A stretch of DNA of 64,000 bases. Source: a virus. The position numbers and the translations under genes were made by a program. Location: the IMG/VR virus record IMGVR_UViG_3300048997_000353, positions 1 through 64,000 of that record, one strand, 5' to 3'. Each line of letters begins with the position of its first letter. The stretch's first letter is position 1. Positions 56,801 through 58,685 of this stretch are shown here, piece by piece. The notes beneath the pieces were generated by a model, which saw nothing but the letters and a program-made list of their open reading frames with translations, did not search any database and had not been told where the DNA came from.

Positions 56801-56875
56801 TGGAGCGCCTGGCGCGATTCGAACGCGCGACCCGCCTCTTTAGAGAAGGCTACTCTACCGCTGAGTTACAGGCGC
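56801..56875 (-). tRNA. Amber suppressor tRNA (anticodon CUA), canonical cloverleaf
   Basis: GCGCCTG TA ACTC AGCGGTA GAGT A GCCTT CTCTAAA GAGGC GGGTC GCGCG TTCGAAT CGCGC CAGGCGC T CCA. Confidence 0.92.
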
Positions 56876-56908
56876 CCGGTGCAAAAACCATGTCAAATCG
56901 CGTGCATA

Positions 56909-57388
56909 TTATTCCAACGATTCGACCAAGCTGGTGCCCGGTCCGCACTCAAGCGCAGTGAGCTGCCGCCCACTACCGGGCAGAGAATTGGTGCGGACGG
57001 TAGGATTTTCACCCACACTTTCAGCTTTAGAGGCCGACGTGCCTGACACCGCGTCCGCAGTGTATTTCCAAAGTCGGTAGTTCTTCAGCGCCGCGCGCTG
57101 TTCCCCCGTGATCGGAGCCGTGGCAATCGCCGTAAATCCAAAGTTATTATCCGGTTCGGTCCAGAGGTAGTGCGGGATGTAGTTGGCTTGCAGCTTCGCC
57201 ACGACGCGGCGCAAAGCGGCCACACCGGGCAGGCCGACGACGATGATATTGGGAACGAGATCTTCGTTGGGGTGCTGGATGGCGGCGAGATGGAAAACTG
57301 CATGATTGGCTTGAACGATTTGGTGAGCGACAGGAATGTCCTGTCTAACGAAAACGTACACTGCATGGTCAGTGGGAATCTATGTCAT
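56909..57388 (-). CDS. Pth2-like peptidyl-tRNA hydrolase with an in-frame TAG at codon 3
   Basis: YVFVRQD...QIVQANHA...IIVVG...WTEPD...TAIATAP...LKNYRLW matches the PTH2 family pattern; the frame begins ATG ACA TAG ATT CCC ACT GAC CAT GCA GTG TAC. Confidence 0.82.
56932..56981 (-). ncRNA. 50-nt tRNA-like mini RNA with acceptor stem and ACCA end
   Basis: GCCCGGT AGTGGGC GGCA GCTCACT GCGC TTGA GTGC GG ACCGGGC ACCA: perfect 7-bp acceptor stem plus two hairpins. Confidence 0.6.
56989..57058 (-). tRNA. Atypical 70-nt tRNA with CUA anticodon (short D arm, non-canonical T loop)
   Basis: GCGGACG CG GTG TCAGG CAC G TCGGC CTCTAAA GCTGA AAGT GTGGG TGAAAAT CCTAC CGTCCGC A CCA. Confidence 0.8.
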
Positions 57389-57395
57389 GGCGAGC

Positions 57396-57424
57396 ATTCT
57401 CTGCGTGAACGATGGTGAAGTCAA
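57396..57424 (-). promoter_or_regulatory. Sigma70-type promoter predicted to give a leaderless pth2-like mRNA
   Basis: TTGACT-17bp-GAGAAT, then 7 nt to the ATG at 57388; no Shine-Dalgarno sequence. Confidence 0.65.
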
Positions 57425-57425
57425 C

Positions 57426-57454
57426 AAAAAAAAGGGCGAGCGTTTCTCGCGCCC
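57426..57454 (-). terminator. Rho-independent terminator
   Basis: GGGCGCGAG AAACG CTCGCCC followed by T8 on the minus strand. Confidence 0.8.
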
Positions 57455-57483
57455 GCCCTAAACCAACACCCCATTTTCGAAAG

Positions 57484-58485: not shown

Positions 58486-58533
58486 ACGGTACGCCTTCAC
58501 AAGCAGCGTTTCGTCTCACGACTCTTCAGCCGC
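58486..58533 (-). ncRNA. Type I hammerhead ribozyme
   Basis: GCGG CUGAAGA GUC GUGA GAC GAAA CGC UG CUU GUG AAG GCG UA CCGU: intact CUGANGA / GAAA / GUH core with stems I-III. Confidence 0.85.
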
Positions 58534-58609: not shown

Positions 58610-58685
58610 TGGTGGACCTGACCGGCTATGATCCGGCTGCCTCCTGATTGCAAAACAGGCGCTCTCCCAATTGAGCTACAGGCCC
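58610..58685 (-). tRNA. tRNA-Ala(UGC) with aberrant T loop
   Basis: GGGCCTG...TTTGCAA anticodon loop...GCCGG ATCATAG CCGGT CAGGTCC A CCA; G3:U70 Ala identity pair present. Confidence 0.88.

Follow-up and report, generated by a model that had tools for sequence, protein, structure and literature searches.

The hydrolase gene and the RNA array at its 3' end

The window, by which we mean the whole 64,000-nt stretch of DNA analysed here, covers the initial 64 kb of an IMG/VR soil virus record that is 108,441 bp long and has an estimated completeness of 71%. Its GC content is 54.7%, and its table-11 ORFs are densely packed and located mainly on the minus strand. One of them (56909..57361, minus strand, 150 aa) reads ...KNYRLWKYT, then continues for 49 more codons and stops at a TAA (56911-56909). 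From 5' to 3', the following elements make up the locus:

57433..57459, minus strand: intrinsic-terminator-like hairpin (10-bp stem, 8 GC pairs) followed by a T run, closing the upstream unit
57396..57424, minus strand: sigma-70-like promoter recognized by its sequence, TTGACT-17 nt-GAGAAT, 7 nt before the ATG
57380..57388, minus strand: ATG ACA TAG, here called the amber gate, with an in-frame TAG (57380-57382) after the start and one sense codon
57068..57379, minus strand: PTH2-fold domain of 104 aa, from the I after the TAG to ...NYRLW, assigned from AF2, Foldseek and profile comparisons
57059..57067, minus strand: three stop-free junction codons, K Y T; RNase P would be expected to cut between 57059 and 57058
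56989..57058, minus strand: atypical tRNA(CUA) of 70 nt, within the ORF frame (Rfam RF00005, 41.3 bits)
56932..56981, minus strand: mini-tRNA-like RNA of 50 nt, within the ORF frame, defined by fold and covariation
56909..56911, minus strand: TAA that ends the ORF, 21 nt beyond the mini-tRNA
56801..56875, minus strand: canonical tRNA(CUA) with discriminator U and encoded CCA, last of the array (60.5 bits; ARAGORN and Rfam)

The spacing of −35, −10 and ATG is identical in most close relatives and, since the promoter ends 7 nt before the ATG, the transcript is probably leaderless or near-leaderless. No other promoter-like site was found between this promoter and the tRNAs, so the ORF would constitute the 5' leader of the tRNA precursor.

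Several lines of evidence assign the protein to the Pth2 fold. The AlphaFold (AF2) model, built from an alignment of 70 relatives, reached a pLDDT of 88.7; its best Foldseek matches were all Pth2 enzymes (2zv3, 1wn2, 1q7s and 1xty, TM 0.72-0.76), and a profile comparison against the PDB retrieved the peptidyl-tRNA hydrolases 24bt/2zv3 (E 4e-4). The Pfam PTH2 model (PF01981) gave the window protein 16.1 bits, below its gathering score of 23, and matched weakly 46 of the 70 relatives (best E 2.9e-7). With Pth2/PTRH2 the phage protein shares, besides the fold, the Q..HA helix motif and an acidic residue at the position of the catalytic Asp; opposite the Asp of archaeal Pth2 the alignment has a Glu that is nearly invariant. 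Unlike those enzymes, it scores under the Pfam threshold and lacks the inserted GK segment in which archaeal Pth2 has its catalytic Lys; its hydrolase activity is putative. The presence of Pth2/PTH2 proteins in jumbo phages has been noted before (PMC7824862, PMC3622015), in one case as a likely rescue enzyme (PMC7824862), with no mention in these reports of an amber gate or a stop-less junction, nor did we find a description of either in the literature. The ORFs neighbouring the hydrolase gene showed no Pfam match; a search for a phage-encoded tmRNA or additional rescue factors found none. Neither blastn against phage records nor a scan of viral contigs with the single protein gave any match.

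Immediately behind the junction lies a tRNA gene of unusual architecture. The Rfam tRNA match (56992-57058, minus strand) scores 41.3 bits against a gathering value of 29 and is followed by an encoded CCA (56989-56991), yet the gene is missed by ARAGORN; it has a 3-nt D loop (CAG) and a T loop reading UGAAAAU, and lacks the canonical G18 G19 and T-psi-C. Among 12 ORF-proximal tRNAs the cloverleaf is maintained, with compensatory changes on both sides at 15 of 20 pairs. The canonical tRNA(CUA) at 56801-56875, the third CCA-ending RNA, is located beyond the ORF stop. Both tRNAs of the window carry the anticodon loop CUCUAAA (7 nt, U33, anticodon CUA), and on this basis both are predicted amber suppressors.

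Between them, 7 nt beyond the atypical tRNA, begins the mini-tRNA, composed of a 7-bp acceptor stem, a GGCA-loop hairpin, a T-arm-like hairpin with a UUGAGU loop and a terminal ACCA. It matched no Rfam family. A covariance model built on five copies (13 of 18 pairs compensatory) recovered eight further copies in other loci and just this one in the window. In 14 aligned mini-tRNAs 97.8% of the cells are paired and 16 of the 18 pairs have changed on both sides; the covariation score of 0.79, to be read with the alignment having been fitted to the model, exceeds those of shuffles (0.20) and of slid controls (0.15 or less). Likewise, elements of 42-60 nt with a perfect 7-bp stem and a CCA end had a density in the arrays 35 times that in the rest of these loci. 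Given the 7-bp acceptor stem, N73 and encoded CCA, and that they are real genes, both in-frame RNAs are plausible substrates of RNase P.

In relatives, an array may combine two minis with between one and three tRNAs, Arg(UCU) and Lys(UUU) among them. The elements at L016:773-822, L039:1927-1976 and L010:2862-2910 belong to a third mini-tRNA subtype, marked by a GCUAGAGUCUU motif that is conserved. The last tRNA of one array (L010:3004-3078, the same as in L023) has an 8-nt anticodon loop, CCUCUAGU, to which ARAGORN assigns no anticodon; this tRNA may act as an unusual suppressor or read quadruplets. Two tRNA-like genes (L033:547-625 and L045:1992-2069) are given the four-base anticodon gcaa by ARAGORN, the one of L033 being the first element after its stop-less ORF. 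At position 33, where U is near-universal, the ORF-proximal tRNA(CUA) genes of L014:423-498 and L021:1807-1882 carry G or C (loops CGCUAAA and CCCUAAA); unusual T loops are general in the ORF-proximal tRNA(CUA) class. In the window, the 56-nt spacer from the mini-tRNA to the second tRNA(CUA) (56876-56931, minus strand), which holds the TAA of the ORF, forms a hairpin in a 346-nt fold, and the corresponding spacer of the relatives measures merely 1-22 nt. Long-range pairing that would mask the tRNA was considered and not adopted, the 346-nt fold being uninformative. Elsewhere in the window, some 80 nt downstream of a tRNA-Ala(UGC) (58610-58685), there is a weak match to a type I hammerhead (58500-58529, minus strand; E 1.8, 17.4 bits against a threshold of 34).

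A preliminary description of this DNA had placed the end of the PTH2-like domain at ...KNYRLWKYT and the first nucleotide of the tRNA in the very next codon, and had traced the frame for about 49 codons across two CCA-ending RNAs to a TAA. The Rfam match, which begins at 57058, and the ORF list bear out both points. Since the PTH2-fold domain is already complete at its W (57068), a cut at 57058 would leave the full domain plus three residues, of which K-[YF] is semi-conserved at the junction of the relatives. Cutting by RNase P at the +1 position of tRNAs is established biology, and we may fairly infer that such a cut would be followed by a message without stop codon. The open run of the window is unremarkable when taken alone, given that at 54.7% GC the probability of 49 stop-free codons from base composition is about 0.14; the case therefore rests on the comparison with relatives.

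The amber gate

For this comparison, 76 metagenomic and 8 viral loci were collected. An in-frame TAG immediately 5' of the domain was present in 74 of 88 loci, the usual form being an ATG, one to five codons and the TAG, and the gated loci include those of the cultured phages Arash, CBB and RsoM2USA. The combination of an amber gate with a nearby tRNA(CUA) appears family-wide, with an association that is not clean in the fetched flanks, which are short and in which ARAGORN misses the atypical tRNAs. As a consequence of the early TAG the gene is mis-annotated in GenBank, where it is split, truncated or omitted in Arash (L001), CBB (L002) and RsoM2USA (L003); in the Arash annotation, the peptidyl-tRNA hydrolase comprises the last 50 aa only.

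The gate seems to be a singular feature of this gene. Genome-wide amber recoding was looked for and not found, the table-11 ORFs being dense, and no further amber-gated gene was found in the 108-kb record, the start-proximal TAG gate occurring in the hydrolase gene only. One other candidate of the form ATG-N-TAG (record position 75778) looks like a chance occurrence, with an ordinary Met start 28 codons on.

Some relatives depart from the usual form. Two loci (L053:1441-1500 and L062:1441-1500) show an SD, an ATG plus four codons and an in-frame TAA, followed by the PTH2-like domain, which implies an ochre-gated variant with TAA in place of TAG; the short sequences flanking these two loci revealed no tRNA(UUA). 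In four others (L025, L027, L028 and L039) the codon just after the gate TAG is an ATG, and initiation at this post-TAG ATG could bypass the gate. L008:2441-2975 amounts to a natural experiment: the gate has been lost (GTG start, no TAG) and the stop-less junction kept, the adjacent tRNA being a tRNA-Arg(UCU), which reads AGA, in replacement of the CUA tRNA.

The position of the gate brings to mind nonsense polarity, an established phenomenon. Read-through by the suppressor might keep ribosomes on the 330-nt leader and thereby avert Rho-dependent termination before the tRNAs, in which case suppressor activity would boost the transcription of its own genes in a positive feedback. A UAG at codon 3 and a single upstream promoter fit the classic form of polarity, as does the lack of any stop or spacer ahead of the first structured RNA. 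Even so, such a function requires translation up to the first RNA, not through it, and the gate is also kept in relatives that have their own stop and distant tRNAs; we regard both the anti-termination role and the positive feedback as very improbable.

Conservation of the stop-less junction and of the frame beyond it

Junction statistics were drawn from 23 usable loci with 12 distinct junction layouts, all belonging to a single phage clade, so that their common ancestry makes the counts of frames, like every other statistic on related loci given here, overstate independence. In all 23, the distance from the last codon of the domain to the start of the first CCA-ending RNA is +1 to +25 nt, and in none of them, across the 12 layouts, does a stop in the ORF frame precede that RNA. 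The preliminary description had envisaged that all homologues could have a stop before the tRNA, the window being then a case of recent stop loss. As the other members of the clade also lack one, the missing stop of the window is not a recent loss.

In the protein tree 22 of the trait-bearing rows make up a single clade, in which an inner node uniting 21 of them has 96/86 support, and one further row sits on a long branch; the trait-bearing loci show about 45-63% protein identity to the window. Sister clades and the homologues of jumbo phages have their own stop 2-20 codons past the domain and no adjacent tRNA, a tRNA(CUA) being often located a few hundred nt away. Within the clade, the identity of the first RNA also changes, from the atypical tRNA(CUA) in the subclade of the window to a mini-tRNA or an odd tRNA-like RNA in more basal members.

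The absence of stops from the junction does not by itself indicate selection. The gaps measure 0-8 codons, and with about two stops expected and none seen the data are compatible with neutrality; being so short, these gaps do not allow a claim of selection against stops within them. An ancestral deletion could simply have set the RNA array against the end of the domain, after which the next in-frame stop was used and the resulting tail was harmless. In agreement with such neutral compaction, the trait has essentially a single origin, the tails encoded by the RNAs are not conserved as protein and range in length from 10 to 52 aa, and the L008 junction persists with neither gate nor suppressor. 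The last 49 codons of the ORF represent two RNA genes in frame with the hydrolase gene, not independent coding sequence.

The frame beyond the junction, on the other hand, behaves in a manner that compaction leaves unexplained. The ORF frame is open across the entire first RNA in 21 of the 23 loci, compared with 13 and 6 for the other two frames; counted per junction layout, it is open in 12 of 12 versus 7 and 1. For layouts, the corresponding binomial P values range from 2e-6 to 1.6e-3 under independence, a condition that the layouts do not fully satisfy. Furthermore, 13 mini-tRNAs contain a UGA or UAA in the loop of hairpin 2, the T-arm-like one, and this triplet is in the phase of the ORF in 10 of the 13. 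In nine relatives, the window not among them, the loop UGA or UAA is the actual stop of the ORF, at offsets of +31, 43, 91, 103, 109, 112, 115, 115 and 118. Because these offsets differ by multiples of three, the phase has been preserved despite indels in the junction, the tRNA, the spacer and the hairpin. In the window and in L013 the loop stop does not share the phase of the ORF, which continues to +157 and +148, respectively. The maintenance of the ORF frame through the first RNA and the loop-stop phase in nine relatives are new in the present analysis, and suggest that, in a meaningful fraction of transcripts, ribosomes do cross the first RNA. Neutral compaction accounts neither for the ORF frame alone staying open in 12 of 12 layouts nor for indels that keep phase to the loop stop; moreover, the message would remain subject to truncation, since RNase P would still have to process this transcript. 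For these reasons we hold it to be a rather unlikely explanation, albeit one to be taken seriously.

The same observations bear on a second reading, put forward in the preliminary description by analogy with arfA. The message of arfA in E. coli is truncated by RNase III, and ArfA is made when tmRNA is limiting and not otherwise. Transferred to the phage gene, RNase P would cut nearly every transcript, the product would be SsrA-tagged and destroyed, and the enzyme would accumulate when tmRNA is saturated, for example by suppressor-driven read-through; both the scheme and this particular source of saturation seem to us improbable. Some facts do speak for it. Suppressor tRNAs increase the tmRNA load in E. 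coli, and the functions of Pth and tmRNA are connected. All 23 loci of the clade are without a stop ahead of the first RNA, the hydrolase domain is complete at the cut site, and the protein has a peptidyl-tRNA hydrolase fold, an activity tied to ribosome rescue (PMC7824862). Nevertheless, if RNase P always cut first, there would be no translation past the cut, and the downstream stop would be expected in random phase; what is observed is an ORF frame open through the first RNA with a loop-stop phase locked in nine relatives. In addition, distant homologues, including those of cultured jumbo phages, end at an ordinary stop, so non-stop control is dispensable for the enzyme. Of the arfA-like proposal, then, the conserved no-stop junction stands (23 of 23), and the irrelevance of the downstream frame does not, this frame being open in 21 of 23 loci with a phase-locked loop stop. 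Taken together, the frame data favour the alternative of the preliminary description, a competition between translation through the tRNA and its maturation, over control of the ArfA type.

A possible coupling of translation and RNA maturation

The reading that we tentatively prefer, though we would give it slightly less than an even chance, is that translation and RNase P maturation compete on one transcript, the hydrolase gene acting as the translated leader of the tRNA precursor. The transcript would comprise, after the promoter, a leaderless or near-leaderless AUG-ACA-UAG gate, the hydrolase domain and, 9 nt on, the RNA array. Passage of the UAG gate would require the CUA suppressor tRNA, and those ribosomes that get past it would proceed into the first RNA and keep it unfolded, whereas copies in which the first RNA has folded would be cut by RNase P at its +1. 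Since a ribosome inside the RNA would block its folding, translation and maturation would be mutually exclusive on each transcript. Copies cut first would yield the tRNAs and a stop-less message, whose product would be directed to ribosome rescue; those translated first would yield the hydrolase with a junk tail, with the tRNAs delayed. The net result would be a feedback tying together suppressor activity, maturation of the RNA array and the yield of hydrolase. What the sequences show is the anatomy of the locus, its conservation in a clade of soil phages and the open ORF frame through the first RNA; the cleavage by RNase P, its timing and its dependence on translation are what we infer.

Several observations count against this coupling. 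The L008 locus retains the stop-less junction without a TAG gate and with a tRNA-Arg(UCU) in place of the CUA tRNA; a mini-tRNA, not the suppressor, comes first in about half of the clade; and in L013 and the window the loop stop is not in the ORF phase. The second of these also limits the alternative offered in the preliminary description, in which translation through the tRNA would give negative feedback on suppression. As a mini-tRNA comes first in roughly half of the relatives, a direct suppressor feedback would not be universal.

The comparison with known systems helps to delimit the arrangement. As in arfA, the mature phage message would lack a stop, with an endonuclease site preceding any stop codon, and the product is linked to ribosome rescue or peptidyl-tRNA turnover. 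The differences are that RNase P would act here at the 5' end of a tRNA instead of RNase III at a hairpin, that past the cut the frame seems to be under selection, contrary to what would follow from a pure non-stop model, and that the phage gene has homologues with normal stops. A more specific version of the arfA analogy, in which the stop-less junction is a programmed ribosome-rescue sensor forming a two-key circuit with the UAG gate, appears improbable to us, and so, to the same degree, does its corollary that the enzyme escapes SsrA tagging and builds up only once tmRNA has been saturated by amber suppression of the phage itself.

In mitochondrial tRNA punctuation, ORFs abut tRNAs and their incomplete stops are completed by polyadenylation. 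The phage coding sequence likewise abuts the 5' end of a tRNA without a complete stop, and RNase P would set the 3' end of the mRNA. It differs in that the ORF continues in frame through the tRNA, and in belonging to a bacterial virus. An A tail would not create a UAA in the window because its junction ends ...UAC ACU in frame, and stop completion of the mitochondrial type by A-tailing was ruled out, the junctions having no in-frame U or UA except in L008, whose message would end in an in-frame U from which A-tailing could make UAA.

The mini-tRNAs recall mascRNA of MALAT1 and the t-elements of plant mitochondria, which are also tRNA-like RNAs of about 50 nt located directly 3' of another RNA, with a conserved acceptor stem, a T-arm-like hairpin and, to judge by its sequence in the phage case, a likely RNase P cut. 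In contrast to them, the CCA of the phage elements is encoded and not added later, and they occur in arrays with true tRNAs, within a reading frame to which they often supply the stop. Stop-codon-recoded phages with suppressor tRNAs that use code 15 have also been described (bioRxiv 10.1101/2021.08.26.457843, PMC10879173). They have in common with the present case a phage-encoded tRNA(CUA) and in-frame TAG that requires read-through; the genome analysed here differs in that its code is otherwise standard and the TAG is confined to a single gene, always at codons 3-7.

The suppressor tRNAs of phages with a standard code have lacked a clear target or control. Here, the gene of a hydrolase that, by its predicted fold, acts on tRNA ends would need the suppressor for its translation and would also lead the suppressor's own precursor, the two not being separated by any stop codon. 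The data also define a family of CCA-ending mini-tRNAs of about 50 nt with strong covariation. Should the sensor reading be true, arfA would have its first viral counterpart in this locus, which would also offer the first example of a tRNA gene that removes the stop of the preceding gene. If ribosome transit and RNase P do compete, it would constitute a compact natural circuit that joins translation fidelity, tRNA maturation and ribosome rescue.
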